A stretch of DNA of 64,000 nt from Candidatus Gastranaerophilales bacterium (GCA_910587375.1 CAJULR010000022.1:8431-72430); one strand, 5' to 3'. Numbered from the stretch's first letter, positions 4,241 through 28,705 are shown. A program made the numbers and translations. Notes: generated by a model not told the origin, from the letters alone.

Positions 4241-7204
4241 CTACATAGACGTGCTCTTATATTCAATTATGACAACCCCGTCGCCGCCATAGCCGCCAAG
4301 TCCGCCCACCCCGTCAACAACAGCGCCGCCTCCGCCGCCTCCGCCAAAGACTCCGGGCTTTCCTTGCGCTCCGCTTGCTGCTGCGTTACAATTTCCCGCA
4401 GCGCTCATGTTTCCGCCACAGCCGCCAAGTGGTGGCCCCGCAACTTTCCCGTCTTTGGATTTTATAAACGTCGCAAAGGTGTTGTCGATGTTTTGATAGA
4501 TATATTCCATATATCCGCCGATTCCGCCGCCGATTTCAGAGCCCGCATGCCCGTGCACGGCTGCTCCTTCGTCTGCAGCATAGTTATTATAGTTGTCAGG
4601 AAGCTTTTGAACCCCGCCATGGTCGTCTTTTGTAAGGCCGCTGTTGCCTTTAAGGCCGCCTTTTGCCTTTAAAAGCGTGCCAAAAGAGCTTTCGCCGCCC
4701 GCGCCGTCATAGGCTGTGCCGTTTGCCGCGGTTCCTGTTTTGCCGCCTTTGCCGATTGTGATTGGGATTTCGCTTCCCGGTTTTAAGTTATATAAAGTTG
4801 TAGATTTATATTCGCCGCTGGTGCCGCCCCCGCCGTTGCTGCCGCCATATTCAATGTAAATATAGCCGCTTGCACCTGCAGCGCCCATGCCAAAGGTGTC
4901 CCCTGTGGTTTGTGCGCCTGCTCCGCCGCCTCCGCCTGCGCCGTAGCTGTCGATTGCTGGTGTGGAGCCGTTTTTAACGCTGTTTCCGCCAGTTCCCCCT
5001 GAAACGCTTTCTGCTTTCATATTTTGGATGTTTCCGCCTGCGCCGCCAAAACCTTTGTTTGTAATTGCAGAGGCCAAAATGCCTTCGCCGCCTCCATATC
5101 CGCCTGTAAAGGTTTTGTTTAGCCAGTTTCCGCTTGCGTTTGCAACGTTATCCTGCATAATAAACACGCGTGTTCCAAGCCTTGCGCCGCCAGCAGAGGC
5201 CACATTCGGGTCTGAAGAGTATTGGCCTGCGTTTCCGCCAAGGGCTGTTGCAATGATTGTGCCTGTGGAAGAGCCGCGGCGGATGTAGGTTGCGCCGCCG
5301 TTGTTTCCGTTTTTGCCTGCGCTCACTTGGTTTGCGCCGCCTGCGCCCACTTCAAAATATAGGGTTTCGCCTGGGGTCACGGTGATTTCACCAATGGTCA
5401 TTTGGCCTGCGCCCCCGCCGCCCCCGCCATTTGCCGGCATATTATATGTGCATTTCAAGGCATTTGTCCTTGCCCCCGACTGCCCGTAACAAAGACGTAG
5501 CGCACCAGGCATGCCGTTGTTGGCCGCATTATTTGCATCTTTAGTGTTTTGTGTTCCATCGCCACCGTTACAATAATTGGCGCTTTTCCATATTGTAGTA
5601 GTACCTATAGTACCGGCAGTACTACTATTGCCAGATTTGCCTCCGTACCCTCCGCCTCCACCAACACCTGCAGATGTAGTACCTGTATTTCCGGTCAAAC
5701 CATTACCTATGCCTACAGTTGTATTTAAATATGTCCCACCTCCACCTCCAGCTCCAGCTCCACCTTTTCCACTTCCACCTGCTCCACCCCCTCCGCCATA
5801 TCCGCCCCCACCACCTCCGCCTCCTCCTGCACCGTAATATGTGCTTGAACTATAATGATAGCTTCCACCCCCACCCCCACCCCCACCAATTTGAAATATT
5901 ATAGTACCAGAGGTTCCTGAAGCAGTAGAAATTGATGTTGGGCCTCCGCCACCCCCACCCCCACCTGTTGCAAGACTTCCACTACCATTTGAATATGCAT
6001 TTCTTGCGCCCCCACCTCCGCCTCCACCCCATATTCCACCTCTTCCGCCACTTCCTGCATAACTGCTTGATATAGCATTACTACCTGTTCCCCCATACGA
6101 GATGGCAGTTCCAGTTCCATTTGAACCAGATGTTGCGTTTCCAGTAGAAGATTGCAGTCCTTGGCCACCATTACCTCCATATGTGCCTCCATTTCCACCG
6201 CTGTAGTTGCCACTCCAAGCTCCACCACCTCCACCTCCAGCACTATATCCACCTTCATTGCCACTGTGTTTACCTATTGCGCCCCCACCTCCACCTCCAG
6301 CAACTTTTATATAAACAGTTGATACAGATGAAGTTACTGATGCATTTGCTATATATCCACCTGAGCCTCCACCGCCACCATATGTATCGTACCCTGCACC
6401 ACCCCCACCCCCGCCGCCGCAGGCGGTGACTTTGAGTTCAGCTCCGGCTGTGGCTCCGGGGGTATATTTAACGCTTTCATCTGCCGTTAAGGTCCACTGT
6501 GTCACGCCTGAGGACTTACAGGCGCTGTCCAATTCGGGGACAATCCAGCTTGCATTGTTAGGAATTGTAAAGCTGTGTTCACCCGCGCTTAAAAAATCTT
6601 TACATGTTTCTGCAGCAGTTACCGAGGGAATATCTCCATAAGCTGTACCCACCCCAACGCCGCCGCTGGCGCCGCCTCCGCCGCCACCGACCATATAAAC
6701 GCGAAGTTTTGTAACGCCTTCCGGGACTTTCCAGCTTTGAACAGAGCTTGGGTTTTTAAATTCTAAAACGCCGTGGAATGCGTCCCCGCCTGCGCCTCCG
6801 CCGCCGAGCATGGTCACTTTGGCAGAGTTTACGTCAACCGGAACAAGAAAGGTTCCATCTTCGTTAAAAATCTGAATAACCGCGTCTTTATCGTATTGTG
6901 CGGCGCCAACGCCCGAAACATTGATTGTGGCTTCGTCCATGCGCTTTGTCATGACAGGCGCCAAGGCCGCCATGAGTAACGACGCCACCAATAGAGCCAT
7001 AAGCATTTCCACCAACGAAAACGCAGCATGGGATGATGTTGGGTTAAAACCCAACCTACGGGTTTGAGATTCTGAAACAAGTTCAGAATGACAAAGTCGG
7101 TCCCCGTTCGTTGGCCGAACAGTGTCCATTGGTTGAACGGCCGCAGTGCGGTTTAGAGCTGCAAAACTGCAGCTGTTTTTGAACAACTTTTTAAACATAA
7201 ACAA
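4241..7204 (-). CDS. giant glycine-rich protein with type IV prepilin-like N-terminal cleavage/methylation segment
   Basis: HAA|FSLVEMLMALLVASLLMAALAPVMTK matches the N_methyl-type motif (F-S-L-V-E plus a hydrophobic helix). The rest consists of stacked Gly-rich modules with runs of up to 9 Gly. Modules are bounded by beta-like strands (SWKVPEGVTKLRVYMVGGGGGG ... GYIYIEYGG ... GVVIIEYK). The true start is uncertain: TTG 7204, ATG 7198, or an internal TTG near 7050. Confidence 0.85.
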   Translation of the reverse strand: MFMFKKLFKNSCSFAALNRTAAVQPMDTVRPTNGDRLCHSELVSESQTRRLGFNPTSSHAAFSLVEMLMALLVASLLMAALAPVMTKRMDEATINVSGVGAAQYDKDAVIQIFNEDGTFLVPVDVNSAKVTMLGGGGAGGDAFHGVLEFKNPSSVQSWKVPEGVTKLRVYMVGGGGGGASGGVGVGTAYGDIPSVTAAETCKDFLSAGEHSFTIPNNASWIVPELDSACKSSGVTQWTLTADESVKYTPGATAGAELKVTACGGGGGGGAGYDTYGGGGGSGGYIANASVTSSVSTVYIKVAGGGGGGAIGKHSGNEGGYSAGGGGGGAWSGNYSGGNGGTYGGNGGQGLQSSTGNATSGSNGTGTAISYGGTGSNAISSSYAGSGGRGGIWGGGGGGGARNAYSNGSGSLATGGGGGGGGPTSISTASGTSGTIIFQIGGGGGGGGSYHYSSSTYYGAGGGGGGGGGYGGGGGAGGSGKGGAGAGGGGGTYLNTTVGIGNGLTGNTGTTSAGVGGGGGYGGKSGNSSTAGTIGTTTIWKSANYCNGGDGTQNTKDANNAANNGMPGALRLCYGQSGARTNALKCTYNMPANGGGGGGAGQMTIGEITVTPGETLYFEVGAGGANQVSAGKNGNNGGATYIRRGSSTGTIIATALGGNAGQYSSDPNVASAGGARLGTRVFIMQDNVANASGNWLNKTFTGGYGGGEGILASAITNKGFGGAGGNIQNMKAESVSGGTGGNSVKNGSTPAIDSYGAGGGGGAGAQTTGDTFGMGAAGASGYIYIEYGGSNGGGGTSGEYKSTTLYNLKPGSEIPITIGKGGKTGTAANGTAYDGAGGESSFGTLLKAKGGLKGNSGLTKDDHGGVQKLPDNYNNYAADEGAAVHGHAGSEIGGGIGGYMEYIYQNIDNTFATFIKSKDGKVAGPPLGGCGGNMSAAGNCNAAASGAQGKPGVFGGGGGGGAVVDGVGGLGGYGGDGVVIIEYKSTSM
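7038..7092 (-). repeat. hairpin repeats H2b (gtaggttgggttttaacccaac) and H1 variant (gtcattctgaacttgtttcagaatctc) inside the 5' part of the 987-aa ORF
   Basis: Reverse complement of 7038-7059 and of 7066-7092. The order and spacing relative to the FSLVEM codons match those in the 906-aa gene. Confidence 0.8.
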
Positions 7205-7398
7205 TTTCTCACTTTTTTAAAGTATTAACCGAAAATTTAATCTTTAGAACAACTTTTTAGTAAAATTTTCTACTACACAATATATTATAATAATGTTTAC
7301 ATTAAAAATCAATAAAAACTTGTTGTGTAGGTTATGAACACATGGCCTATTGCATAATAAGCTGTTGTTTGTATTGGGTTCAAGAAAAGTGGAATAAT

Positions 7399-7737
7399 AT
7401 GGACGAGAAAGAAATCAGGAAATTATTGGGCGAAAACATCAGAAGAATCCGCTGGAGTAAGAATATGACGCAGGAAGCGTTTTCAGAAAAAATCGGGATT
7501 GAGCCTTCAAGCCTTTCAAACATTGAAAACGGAAAGAGCCTGCCTTCAACACAAACAATTCTTAACATTCAGCAACAATTTGAAGTTTCTCCCAATGAAA
7601 TTTTTGATTTTGACATTGACTATGTTAAAAGCGCGCAAAACCTTGAAGATGAGATTTTTAGCACTGTTCGGGCCTTTGATGTAGACAGGAAGCGGGTTTT
7701 ATACAAAATTGTGAAGGCAATTGAAGTTACGGCGTAA
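7399..7737 (+). CDS. XRE-family helix-turn-helix transcriptional regulator
   Basis: MDEKEIRKLLGENIRRIRWSKNMTQEAFSEKIGIEPSSLSNIENGK is a classic Cro/CI-type HTH. An internal ATG at 7399 is preferred over the track start at 7342. The gene is divergent from the 987-aa gene. Confidence 0.8.
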   Translation: MDEKEIRKLLGENIRRIRWSKNMTQEAFSEKIGIEPSSLSNIENGKSLPSTQTILNIQQQFEVSPNEIFDFDIDYVKSAQNLEDEIFSTVRAFDVDRKRVLYKIVKAIEVTA

Positions 7738-25904: not shown

Positions 25905-25984
25905 GTTATATACATATACGACACAACTAGGTTAACTGGATATAATTTTTGATTGTTGATTAATTAAAAAAAAGGAATTATAAA

Positions 25985-28705
25985 ATGCAAAACAAGCAAA
26001 TCTGTAAGTTGGGCATACTTGCCCAACATCATTCAATGACAGCTGCTCAATCAACGAAAAAAGCAATCAACCAACGTGCAACCGTCACCCTGAACTTGAT
26101 TCAGGGTCTCAACCAACGTGCACCCCGTAGGTTGGGTTTTAACCCAACACCACCCCATGCTGCTTTCTCTCTTGTGGAAATGCTCATGGCCCTTCTTGTG
26201 GCCTCCCTGCTGCTTGCGGCCCTTGCCCCCGTTATGACAAAGAAAATGTCCGAAAATATAAACGTTAACGGCATTTCAGGCGGCGGCCATGCCCCTGCTG
26301 TCTTTAAATGTTGGGACTACGACAGCCCGGAACTCCAGCCTGCGGCGGACGGCAGCAACTATAAAGTCCTCCCCGAAGCCTATCCTGTGGATGACGCCTG
26401 GAATATTAATTTCATCCTTGCTTCAGGCGGCGGCGGAGGCGCCGGTGCCACAATTCCAAACGAAACAAGCCACAGTTTTGACGGCACGGGCGAATTAAAA
26501 ATCGAGCCTGAAATGGATGAAATAGACATTGTTTCAATGATTGGAGGCGGCGCAGGGGGCGGAGGAGGCGCCGCAGTATTTAGCTCTGCCACTTGCACAG
26601 GCGGCCCGTCAGAGGCCAAATGCGAGTGTATGGGCGCAACATACGACTCTGTAAATAAAGTTTGCGTTTCAAATAATTTAGGTTCAAAAAACTTAACAAA
26701 TGCAAAAACAGCATGCCAAAATGTTACACCTCTTAACAAATGGAGTTTGCCAACAACAAGCCAGCTTTCAAACTGGAAGACTAATACGCTGTATTCAACC
26801 CTTGGAATTATAAGCGGGCAGACAGTTTGGAGCCAAACAAGCGGCCAAGGAGCATGCTCTAGTAGCACTTCGACCTATAATTGCTATTACAATGGTGCAT
26901 ATAGAACAGGCTATGCAAGTGAAACAGAATGTTGCAGTGGGAGTAGTTATGGTAGCAAGAAGGGAGCATATGAGCCCAACAATAATTCTTGTGGTGTGTA
27001 TTGCGCTGCAAGAAATGTAACATCTTCCCCTGGAAGTGGCTGGTTTAAAGGCGATGGCCAAACTGCAACAAAATGCGGAGGAACGGGAGGATGTAATTGG
27101 GGTAGTACGGATTATTTTAAATGTGGAACCTGTCCTGATTCTGACACCTGTGCTTCCACTGTTACAACTTCTTGTTCTTCATATTATACAAACTACTACT
27201 TCTACCAACTCACAGGTTCGACCTGGTCCCAAAGTTATGCAACAGATAACACAGGCTCCAGACAGACTTATTGCGTATATAATGACTCCGCAAATGTCAC
27301 AGGTGAAAGCTTCTACTCCCTATCAGGCGGCGGAGGAGGTGGTGCGCCCGCAATTTCAGACAATAATTTCGATTCAAACATTTTAAATACATTTAGAAAA
27401 AGAGTTAAGGAAAACGCCGGCGGCTACCTTGAATTTCAGCGCGGCACAGGCGGAAACGGCGGCGACGCAAGTGCTTCTAAAAACCAAAAAGCAGGAAACG
27501 GCGCAGACGGCGGAGATACCTGTATTATCGTGAAAAACGCGGCACGCGCGTATAAATATAAACTTTGCGTTTCGGGCGGAAACGGCGGCGGGGGCGCAAA
27601 CGCCACCAAAGCAGATTCTTCAACCACAGGCTGGGGCTATGCAGGAGGCGAAAAGAATAACGCAAATGCTTGCTATGTCGTGGATTACACGGCAAATTCC
27701 GCAGGCGTGAAGACAGATTTTGACTGTGCATTAAAAGGAAAAGCCGGAGGGGCAGGCGGCGCCTCAACAAGCAACCCGACAGCGGGCGGAAAAGGCGCTG
27801 CAAGCGTATTAAACAGCACACAAGTTGGCGGAACTGCAGTAAAAGACGGGGTTAGCGCCTCAACTTCAAACTATGGCGCAGGCGGAGGCGGCGGCTCTGC
27901 CTCGAAAACAGGCTATGGCTCTTCAGCAACTCTTGCTTTTGGCAAGGGCGGAAACGGCGCGCCGGGGTATATCAAAATAAACTATAAGAAAAAATTCGCA
28001 GCAGCAGGCGGCGGAGGCGGAGGCGGAGGCTATGTTGCCCATATAAATAATATTACGGTCGGAAAAACCGCAACCTGTGAAATCAAAGTGGGATACGGCG
28101 GGGCAGGAGGCGCTGCCGGGATAAAAGGCTATGACGGCGGAGATTCAAGCGTCACTTGCTCAAATGCGCCAAATGTTACCTACAGAATTACGGGCGGAAA
28201 AGGCGGAGAATTAGGCAGCACAACAGCCGGCGGCCTTGGCGGAGAGGCAGGCACCTATGATGACACAGGGAACATCTTCACAAGGCTTTTCAGCCAGGGA
28301 AATTTCAGACAGGCTGCGGGCCTTGCCGGAAAACAAGGCGGGGCGGGCGATTCCGCAAACTTTAAGGCAAACGTTCGAAGCGCAGGCGGCAGAGGCGGCA
28401 CGGGCGGAACCGGCGAAAAGGGCAAATGCGGCGGTATTTATACAGAAAGCGGCGTTTGCGCCACAGTGCAGGCGGATGAGAATAACGACATAACCGAACC
28501 AAACCAGGACGCCTTGAACGGCGAGGGTTTTGGGGCAGGAGAAATTACAGCGCCCACAAAGGATGGCATAGTTGAGGCCACGCCAAAATACGGAAAAGCA
28601 GGCGCTGGCGGGGGCGGAGGGGCCTGGTATGTAGGCAAAAACCCTGGCCGCGGGGGTGCCGGCCAAGGCGGATATGTCTGCATTTATTGGGACAAGCTGG
28701 AGTAG
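25985..28705 (+). CDS. giant glycine-rich protein with type IV prepilin-like N-terminal segment and a central Cys-rich DUF1566-like insert
   Basis: HAA|FSLVEMLMALLVASLLLAALAPVMTK is nearly identical to the 987-aa protein. Gly-rich modules end in GYIKINYKK and GYVCIYWDK. The central part holds about 18 Cys and a KWSLPTTSQLSNW motif. The true start is uncertain (ATG 25985 with an AAGGA site upstream, or TTG 26132). Confidence 0.85.
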   Translation: MQNKQICKLGILAQHHSMTAAQSTKKAINQRATVTLNLIQGLNQRAPRRLGFNPTPPHAAFSLVEMLMALLVASLLLAALAPVMTKKMSENINVNGISGGGHAPAVFKCWDYDSPELQPAADGSNYKVLPEAYPVDDAWNINFILASGGGGGAGATIPNETSHSFDGTGELKIEPEMDEIDIVSMIGGGAGGGGGAAVFSSATCTGGPSEAKCECMGATYDSVNKVCVSNNLGSKNLTNAKTACQNVTPLNKWSLPTTSQLSNWKTNTLYSTLGIISGQTVWSQTSGQGACSSSTSTYNCYYNGAYRTGYASETECCSGSSYGSKKGAYEPNNNSCGVYCAARNVTSSPGSGWFKGDGQTATKCGGTGGCNWGSTDYFKCGTCPDSDTCASTVTTSCSSYYTNYYFYQLTGSTWSQSYATDNTGSRQTYCVYNDSANVTGESFYSLSGGGGGGAPAISDNNFDSNILNTFRKRVKENAGGYLEFQRGTGGNGGDASASKNQKAGNGADGGDTCIIVKNAARAYKYKLCVSGGNGGGGANATKADSSTTGWGYAGGEKNNANACYVVDYTANSAGVKTDFDCALKGKAGGAGGASTSNPTAGGKGAASVLNSTQVGGTAVKDGVSASTSNYGAGGGGGSASKTGYGSSATLAFGKGGNGAPGYIKINYKKKFAAAGGGGGGGGYVAHINNITVGKTATCEIKVGYGGAGGAAGIKGYDGGDSSVTCSNAPNVTYRITGGKGGELGSTTAGGLGGEAGTYDDTGNIFTRLFSQGNFRQAAGLAGKQGGAGDSANFKANVRSAGGRGGTGGTGEKGKCGGIYTESGVCATVQADENNDITEPNQDALNGEGFGAGEITAPTKDGIVEATPKYGKAGAGGGGGAWYVGKNPGRGGAGQGGYVCIYWDKLE
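26004..26148 (+). repeat. hairpin repeats H2a (26004-26030), H1 variant (26084-26110) and H2b (26127-26148) inside the annotated 5' end of the 906-aa ORF
   Basis: Direct matches to intergenic copies at 3916, 3624/4116/8194 and 45205. Confidence 0.85.

Follow-up and report, generated by a model that had tools for sequence, protein, structure and literature searches.

Flagellin (fliC) and type IV pilin combine conserved ends that recombine with a hypervariable middle or C-terminal domain that is exchanged, and both occur as discrete allelic types. Here we describe a gene family with a comparable architecture, starting from one member in a 64,000-nucleotide stretch of DNA from a Candidatus Gastranaerophilales bacterium (GCA_910587375.1, CAJULR010000022.1:8431-72430). 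The whole stretch is hereafter called the window, and positions are counted from its first letter. The window gene is listed as a 987-aa open reading frame (ORF) on the minus strand (4241..7204; 985 aa from the first ATG), whose product contains 27% Gly and has a prepilin-like N-terminus. Judged from its sequence, this is presumably a giant glycine-rich, pilin-anchored surface protein of gut Melainabacteria (Gastranaerophilales) acting as an adhesin. Like flagellin and type IV pilin, the family has conserved arms around a predicted surface-exposed hypervariable domain. In contrast to them, it has a glycine-rich fold and is multigenic, it shows a coding-strand T-for-C shift next to arms that are richer in C than the genome, and its variable part is not simply foreign in GC content.

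The other close parallel is gp38, the adhesin of T-even phages (Straboviridae), in which glycine-rich motifs alternate with hypervariable segments and exchanges prefer the conserved flanks (PMC3157838). The same alternation of a Gly-rich framework with hypervariable loops was seen in our alignment of six homologues, and here too exchange is bounded by conserved arms. Homology or a shared fold with gp38 (the polyglycine-II sandwich) was not found for the window protein, and gp38 was absent among the 27 Foldseek matches of our structural model in the PDB. Furthermore, the window protein belongs to a cell, where it is presumably anchored through its pilin-like end; it exceeds gp38 three- to fourfold in size, and has at least 13 paralogues per genome. 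To our knowledge, a codon contrast such as the one reported below has not been described for gp38.

An earlier note, made from the sequence of the window, had claimed an abrupt synonymous-codon switch inside this gene, with edges near 5520 and 6420. This was borne out by the G+C content at third codon positions (GC3), which in sliding 40-codon windows is ~0.5 in the N-terminal part, 0.10–0.28 from codon ~260 to ~540, and 0.45–0.60 in the C-terminal part. In a two-breakpoint maximum-likelihood fit, codon 272 (window 6388) and codon 559 (window 5528) came out as the edges, within ~30 nt of the proposed ones; GC3 is 0.20 between them and 0.51 in the rest of the gene. This fit gained 43.9 log-likelihood units, whereas shuffling the codon order 200 times gave gains that averaged 4.3 and never exceeded 11.9. 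The fit delimits, all on the minus strand, a central cassette or core (codons 273–559, 5528..6388) that is 41% Gly and uses T- or A-ending codons, an N-terminal conserved arm with C-ending codons (codons 60–272, 6389..7027; GC3 0.52), and a C-terminal conserved arm (codons 560–987, 4244..5527; GC3 0.53).

The codon preferences behind this switch also agree for the most part with those described in the note. Gly changes from GGC in the arms (89 of 147 codons) to GGT and GGA in the core (43 and 42 of 117; p = 5e-14). The predicted move of Ser and Thr to AGT and ACT was confirmed as well, with 22 AGC and no AGT codons in the arms versus 5 AGC and 12 AGT in the core (p = 4e-6), and with ACT rising from 3 of 46 Thr codons to 14 of 29 (p = 6e-5). 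For Ala the description was only partly right: GCG is indeed absent from the core, but the arms use chiefly GCA (47%) rather than GCG and GCC, which account for ~20% each. Asn (29 AAC and 9 AAT in the arms, 4 and 15 in the core), Ile (ATC and ATT giving way to ATA, 2 of 28 in the arms vs 10 of 13 in the core) and Arg (CGC in the arms, AGA in the core) switch too. With Gly codons left out, the core still has a GC3 of 0.15 as against 0.46 for the arms, and thus the switch is not limited to Gly.

The genome holding the window, G000, is a metagenome-assembled genome (MAG) of 1.98 Mb in 50 contigs with 37.8% GC, whose long ORFs have a mean GC3 of 0.35 (1st–99th percentile 0.25–0.46). It holds at least 13 paralogues of the gene. 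When all 526 G000 ORFs of at least 400 aa were scanned for intragenic GC3 change-points, the nine strongest (log-likelihood ratio, LLR, 25–54) were all family members, with the window gene ranking fourth, whereas non-family genes reached at most 10.5. Segment GC3 in the nine mosaic copies is 0.46–0.61 for the N arm, 0.19–0.27 for the core and 0.40–0.58 for the C arm; four other copies, all ended by contig edges, have low GC3 throughout. G005 and G009, the species nearest to G000, show the same three-part profile. The suggestion that a cassette had been inserted into this particular gene therefore did not hold, since nine paralogues and the orthologues in two sister species share the profile. 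The family is present in all 12 sampled congeners (10–36 matches each) and in none of eight other families of the same order, and the core keeps its length (~260–330 codons) and Gly content (31–48%) across the genus in every family member. Nine more distant congeners do not have the three-part profile, their arms and core being compositionally alike, and cores are more T-rich in the clade of G000, G005 and G009 than in these distant species.

A positional orthologue of the window gene in another organism, P0001 (locus L071), which is followed by the same TatD and FtsJ genes, has arms of low GC3 (0.2–0.35). These arms are 88–95% identical to those of the window gene in protein but only 70–80% in DNA, while the neighbouring genes are 80–95% identical in DNA. 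Within the N arm, amino acid identity is 86–97% over aa 61–180 and 241–270, and 70–77% over aa 181–240. Together with the lack of contrast in the distant congeners, the low-GC3 arms of P0001 argue that C-rich arms are a derived, labile state; measured against the congeners and this orthologue, change in the C-rich arms has been no less than in the core. In this pair of orthologues, the arm dialect also flips faster than would be expected from neutral divergence. The clade with C-rich arms is also slightly richer in GC3 genome-wide, as GC3 of rpoB (loci L054–L064) is 0.32–0.35 in the mosaic species G000, G005 and G009, and 0.22–0.30 in other congeners. In addition, family relatives with a different, Gly-poor central domain (8–12% Gly), located at window 25964-28705 (C22:34394-37135), C22:99337 and C35:128220, have a middle GC3 of 0.32–0.38 between ends of 0.40–0.57 (LLR 8.7–13), and so a low-GC3 middle does not depend on how much glycine is encoded.

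In every mosaic member of the family, the GC3 switches coincide with the two boundaries of a hypervariable module. This module, flanked by conserved arms that recombine, is either exchanged or maintained in the form of ancient alleles. Orthologues from sister species are 85–98% identical in nucleotide sequence in the arms and 45–62% in the cassette, with sharp edges, and six G000–G009 orthologue pairs have an amino acid identity of 0.90 in the arms vs 0.53 in the core. In one G000–G009 pair, a 30-codon window with 98% nucleotide identity is directly followed by one with 48%, and this step falls precisely on the GC3 switch. The window gene behaves alike when compared with its G009 counterpart (L040): nucleotide identity is 53–63% up to window ~5509 and 78–98% beyond, the C arm being 93% and the core ~56% identical in amino acids. 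The closest relative of the window cassette among 5.8 billion proteins is at most 58–65% identical. An all-against-all comparison of 124 family proteins showed that, in pairs whose arms are 93–100% identical, the cores are either at least 98% or 38–58% identical, with one exception at 76%. Cassettes that are at least 98% identical are found, for instance, in the pairs P0012/P0016 and P0073/P0085. Moreover, the core of P0057 is 86% identical to that of the G000 copy on contig C46 (G000_C46), although the arms of P0057 are 83–91% identical to G000_C46 and 97–100% to G005-type alleles, which shows that one cassette type is shared across species.

Cassette exchange was observed directly in a sister species, at a locus that is paralogous to the window gene. 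Four alleles from different samples occupy the same syntenic position (pyrF-HTH-gene-cheR) and are 96–100% identical in nucleotide sequence upstream, in both arms and downstream, but 30–60% identical, close to saturation, over ~1 kb inside. They encode proteins of 919–957 aa, and along each gene GC3 runs from 0.4–0.5 to 0.1–0.2 and back to 0.4–0.6. Variable sites divide the four alleles two against two in each of the three possible ways, one of them backed by the left arm (19 sites) and the second and third by the right arm (21 and 6 sites); these partitions are incompatible, and thus the arms have recombined. The flagellin-like combination of conserved arms, discrete divergent central alleles and recombination in the flanks is therefore found at this paralogous locus, and the window gene is consistent with it; for the window gene itself, we infer exchange from the G009 and P0001 orthologues. 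The N and C domains of several paralogues also have different nearest relatives. Altogether, the collapse of orthologue identity at the GC3 edges, the unrelated cassettes in near-identical arms and the incompatible arm genealogies indicate that the block has a history unlike that of its flanks and has been shaped by recombination, the latter being part of the other possibility raised in the earlier note.

The C arm of the G000 paralogue at C44:13391-16750 contains a 639-nt tract of low GC3 that is 92% identical to the all-low paralogue at C22:3-2543; this second low-GC3 dip is an inter-paralogue gene-conversion tract bearing the codon dialect of its donor. Assemblies often break within family genes, right where the core begins (aa 281), in the core (aa ~471) or in the N arm (aa ~114–153), for example at L033 (the contig end of GCA_948816875.1), at the start of G009:C80 and at the ends of G000 contigs C12, C20 and C22. 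Two contigs begin with 150 nt of N-arm sequence that are 98% identical, which suggests repeat-induced graph tangles or unresolved variants.

To characterize the dialect, third-position composition was pooled over the nine mosaic copies. At 4-fold degenerate non-Gly sites, C makes up 0.11 in the core, 0.32 in the arms and 0.15 in the genome, and T 0.44, 0.23 and 0.38, respectively; the corresponding values are 0.37, 0.32 and 0.31 for A, and 0.09, 0.13 and 0.16 for G. The share of C at pyrimidine-ending (NNY) codons is 0.22 in the core, 0.59 in the arms and 0.40 in the genome, while that of G at purine-ending (NNR) codons is 0.19, 0.23 and 0.27, so that purine-ending codons barely change between cassette and arms. 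The dialect is thus essentially a choice between T and C on the coding strand, where the cassette prefers NNT and the arms prefer NNC. The GC skew of the coding strand is +0.44 in the core vs +0.12, and paralogues occur in both orientations within their contigs. Non-synonymous differences follow the same direction, since C-rich arms also have more GC at the first two codon positions than their low-GC3 counterparts (108 vs 65 sites), which argues for a compositional force rather than codon selection.

Several candidate causes of the dialect were examined and rejected. The coding of poly-Gly as such does not account for it, as runs of at least four Gly use GGC in the arms (0.58, n = 349) and GGT or GGA in the core (0.45 and 0.32, n = 493). 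Load sharing among tRNA-Gly was discarded too: G000 has one tRNA-Gly gene for each of the anticodons GCC, UCC and CCC, tRNA-Gly(GCC) alone decodes both GGC and GGT, and core and arms do not differ in the share of codons that falls to each isoacceptor. As for translational selection, the genes for EF-Tu, GroEL, DnaK and ribosomal proteins favour GGT, GCT and ACT but AAC, GAC and ATC; highly expressed genes prefer T where sites are 4-fold degenerate and C in NNY codons, and neither dialect fits. The shift in C/(C+T) is equal for every preceding and following base, which speaks against methylated CpG or other neighbour-dependent mutation. Finally, ectopic biased conversion among paralogous C arms is doubtful as the main driver, since these arms are 50–70% identical in amino acids and show one recent tract, the 639-nt one.

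With regard to what the cassette encodes, aligning the cores of six close homologues revealed invariant poly-Gly and beta-strand blocks, with unalignable, indel-rich loops between them. Framework blocks include KVTACGGGGGGG, GGSGGY..V.V.GGGGG and PTTISTxSGTSGTIIFQIGGGGGGGG. An AlphaFold2 model built from 50 sequences has a mean predicted local distance difference test score (pLDDT) of 85.7, with the core confidently modelled. Most of the core has no helix or strand assignment by DSSP in this model, a pattern consistent with that expected for polyglycine-II helices. Foldseek gave only weak matches to this model (E at least 0.03, TM-score at most 0.34 on the target), the best of which comprise the glycine-rich domains of ALK and LTK, the fibre of cyanophage Pam3 and the tail tip of Bxb1; by sequence, no PDB chain matches the core at E values up to 1. 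The C-terminal domain of the window protein belongs to the same Pfam family of glycine-rich domains (PF21722), and this likeness in fold to ALK/LTK and to phage fibre and tail-tip domains says nothing about the codon switch.

The reading that we favour, with moderate confidence, is that the core is a hypervariable central cassette of a surface-protein family, swapped between recombining arms, with a dialect that may result from two substitution regimes. Cassettes would be old allelic lineages moved as units by homologous recombination in the arms, and their diversity would probably be kept by frequency-dependent selection on a surface-exposed binding domain. More tentatively, the dialect may reflect different long-term regimes in recombining arms and non-recombining cassettes. 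The arms, which recombine, may undergo a fixation bias favouring C or GC, while cassette lineages, unable to form heteroduplexes with one another, may decay by C-to-T changes on a strongly G-skewed non-template strand; in neither of these two steps do we place much confidence. A bias of the former kind has precedent in the report that recombining bacterial genes have higher GC3 independently of codon-usage selection, for which GC-biased gene conversion has been proposed (Lassalle et al, 2015; PMC4450053). As in that case, recombining arms are GC3-rich and the cassette GC3-poor, and codon positions 1 and 2 shift too. The present shift differs in being almost entirely C versus T with flat G3, in acting at a sub-gene scale, and in the differing arm dialects of positional orthologues.

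A number of observations weigh against this interpretation. The window gene is represented by one allele only (14 contigs, apparently of one strain), and no donor of its cassette was found among 5.8 billion proteins, the best being at most 65% identical; very fast divergence of the window cassette in situ is still formally conceivable. With respect to biased conversion, C at 4-fold sites is 0.11 in the core and 0.32 in the arms, whereas G is 0.09 and 0.13, the latter under the genome mean of 0.16; a strand-symmetric bias should raise both C and G. Polarised SNPs (single-nucleotide polymorphisms) in the arms, although few, comprise 36 weak-to-strong (A/T to G/C) and 53 strong-to-weak changes with similar frequency spectra, and paralogues with all-low arms also have hypervariable cores. 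With respect to deamination, it leaves unexplained why the arms are richer in C than the genome, and distant congeners have the same Gly-rich core without an excess of T.

Among the rival explanations, that of a single foreign cassette brought into the window gene by horizontal transfer, with low GC3 as the signature of the donor, would account for the sharp edges and for the fact that core and arms both lie outside the 1st–99th percentile range of gene GC3 in the genome. We nevertheless regard it as highly improbable, because the same profile is found in nine G000 paralogues and in G005 and G009, the core is a domain of conserved length with a family-wide framework, the cores of distant congeners are not T-rich, and the search of 5.8 billion proteins returned no donor. 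An artefact of assembly or binning, such as a chimera of two organisms, comes to mind for a MAG of 50 contigs in which family genes often lie at contig ends, but independent assemblies reproduce the locus over 8–9 kb (100% and 99.975%) and the pattern is seen in other genomes, including an 8-contig assembly, which makes this possibility negligible. A contingency locus driven by slippage, as the earlier note had also proposed, would have repeats that change length and give phase-variable, in-frame poly-Gly/Ser/Tyr. Short in-frame tandem repeats are present, poly-Gly runs and total length vary among alleles and paralogues, and assemblies sometimes break inside the core; however, the repeats reach at most 3.8 units, alleles differ by wholesale sequence replacement and not by repeat number, and the codon shift at non-Gly codons is left unexplained. 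Moreover, 14 contigs carry one and the same protein sequence, and the window is matched at 99.98–100% by two assemblies; we consider slippage very unlikely.

Selection on nucleic-acid or translation properties is unlikely as well. Here, T- and A-ending codons in the module richest in Gly would avoid very stable GC-rich structure of mRNA or DNA, or would slow decoding through G:U wobble, in the latter variant for the folding of a polyglycine lattice. When the core was recoded with arm codon usage, its mean minimum free energy (MFE) did fall to -49 kcal/mol per 150 nt, the native value being -33 and that of the arms -41, which gives selection on structure some scope, and the shift is pyrimidine-specific on the same tRNA, as an effect on decoding speed would require. 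Against this, arm poly-Gly runs use GGC freely, including 22- and 32-nt stretches almost all of G and C, the core in its native form has less structure than the arms, beyond mere matching, and it is poor in G-ending codons too, a depletion that merely avoiding C would not call for. Distant congeners, moreover, have the same domain without the contrast between core and arms. We also give little credence to divergence in place under positive diversifying selection without exchange, where low GC3 would come from selective interference weakening selection at synonymous sites. Such divergence agrees with hypervariable loops on a retained framework and with synonymous differences that are moderately higher in securely aligned framework blocks of the core (0.46) than in the arms (0.31). 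It does not fit cores that are 38–58% identical between arms that are 97–100% (protein) or 96–100% (DNA) identical, which is too much change for the elapsed time, nor the bimodal core identities, the core type shared across species despite differing arms, and the incompatible arm genealogies. Finally, by analogy with immunoglobulin switch regions, the dialect could itself be mechanistic and focus diversification on the binding domain of the adhesin, a scenario that we think improbable. The NNT and NNA codons would make the non-template strand of the cassette G-rich and C-poor (GC skew +0.44), so that R-loops might form more readily and leave single-stranded DNA exposed while the gene is transcribed, with localised C-to-T mutagenesis and/or initiation of recombination at shared (GGTGGA)n microhomologies, while the C-rich arms would be protected, faithfully repaired recombination handles. 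No canonical G-quadruplex motif, (G3+N1-7)x4, was found in the gene; two-tetrad GG motifs have 46 starts in the core vs 11–12 in each arm.

Cassette exchange between recombining arms, as we favour it, can also be compared with the pilE/pilS system of Neisseria, which likewise concerns a pilin-family surface protein whose variable region is altered by gene conversion among copies. In our case one inter-paralogue tract was seen, and in contrast to pilE, no variation was seen within the sampled strain of the window gene. Silent promoterless core cassettes of the pilS type were not found, as tblastn and blastn searches against the own genome matched only paralogues bearing an N and/or C arm, some of them truncated or cut by contig ends. 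A diversity-generating retroelement, which would need a reverse transcriptase and a template repeat ~80–90% identical to its variable region, was also rejected: the genome has no RVT_1 match, and there is no second copy of the core above ~76% nucleotide identity over 200 nt, the matches being cores of other paralogues. A full-text literature search for the family in Gastranaerophilales returned nothing relevant.

If the favoured reading is right, the uncultured gut Melainabacteria carry a large repertoire of giant pilin-anchored proteins with exchangeable, strain-specific middle cassettes. Such diversity would be what is expected of a surface structure that hosts, phages or competitors drive to diversify, and would offer a ready-made strain marker. 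The family is also a natural experiment, in which adjacent segments have opposite synonymous pyrimidine preferences with edges sharp to tens of bases, in at least nine paralogues and three species. It thereby allows a direct test of how much a fixation bias linked to recombination and a mutation bias linked to the transcribed strand each contribute in bacteria. For annotation, the case warns that a sub-gene GC3 discontinuity can mark a hypervariable cassette rather than an insertion or a chimera.

The earlier note had also listed repeats in the core, 17-mers at about 5736, 6224 and 6285 and a hexanucleotide run at 5866–5890, and both were found. Exact copies of the 17-mer CCACCTCCACCTCCAGC, which reads GCTGGAGGTGGAGGTGG on the coding strand and encodes A-G-G-G-G-G, lie on the plus strand at 5736..5752, 6225..6241 and 6285..6301, with a further one-mismatch copy at 5742; the chance expectation is 0. 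The hexanucleotide run is (CCACCC)3.8 at 5865..5887 on the plus strand and encodes in-frame poly-Gly, and a second run, (CCACCC)2.8, lies at 5949-5965. No repeat-length variants were seen among the 14 contigs carrying the gene, which are apparently of one strain and so a weak test of slippage. The (GGTGGA)n family of this 17-mer occurs 18 times in G000 with at most one mismatch, exclusively in cores of family genes (e.g. window 5736-5752 and C22:80101). The 15-mer TGGAGGTGGAGGTGG is common to seven of 13 cores, and one copy of the (GGTGGA)n family includes GCTGGTGG, the E. coli Chi octamer. These repeats may provide microhomology for exchange within the core, or the Chi match may be coincidental.

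The match to Pfam Gly_rich_2 (PF21722) covers aa 788–983 (4256..4843, minus strand; E = 3e-18) and scores 67.1 bits, over a gathering cut-off of 24.3 bits and with four matched stretches, and the domain is carried by 88 of 89 homologues. At the other end, a prepilin-type N-terminal motif (..HAAFSLVEMLMALLVASLL.., aa 58–81, 6962..7033, minus strand) is invariant across the family. The prepilin profiles PF07963 (18.1 bits, cut-off 21.2) and TIGR02532 (15.6, cut-off 16.3) both score just under threshold on the protein. Type IV pilins and pseudopilins have a cleavage/methylation motif of the form G/A-F-T/S-L-I/V-E ahead of a hydrophobic helix; here the AFSLVEM motif is followed by a hydrophobic helix, and the AlphaFold2 model has a helix at the N-terminus. 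The exact 985-aa product occurs on 14 public contigs; its cluster at 90% identity consists of this protein and a 281-aa fragment ended by a contig edge at the start of the core, and nothing else. The two independent assemblies are of the same strain, and the two mismatches between them and the window are at 7115 and 2524, neither of them in the core.

Upstream of the gene and divergent from it lies a small gene of the XRE/helix-turn-helix (HTH) type (7342..7737, plus strand), an ORF with precomputed Pfam HTH_3/HTH_19 matches on called genes. The gene order at the window locus is TPR-GGDEF-HTH-gene-TatD. A small HTH gene has the same position and orientation at both inspected loci, here (window 7342-7737) and at the pyrF locus in other strains (L067 1004-1213 and L070 1142-1351), an arrangement that hints at regulation per locus. 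In addition, the long leader upstream of AFSLVEM contains short palindromic repeats resembling repetitive extragenic palindromic (REP) elements (window 7038-7120, coding-sequence nt 83–188), which are translated as ..CHSELVSESQ... By blastn, 25–60-nt copies of this leader repeat, with 90–100% identity, were found on more than 20 contigs.

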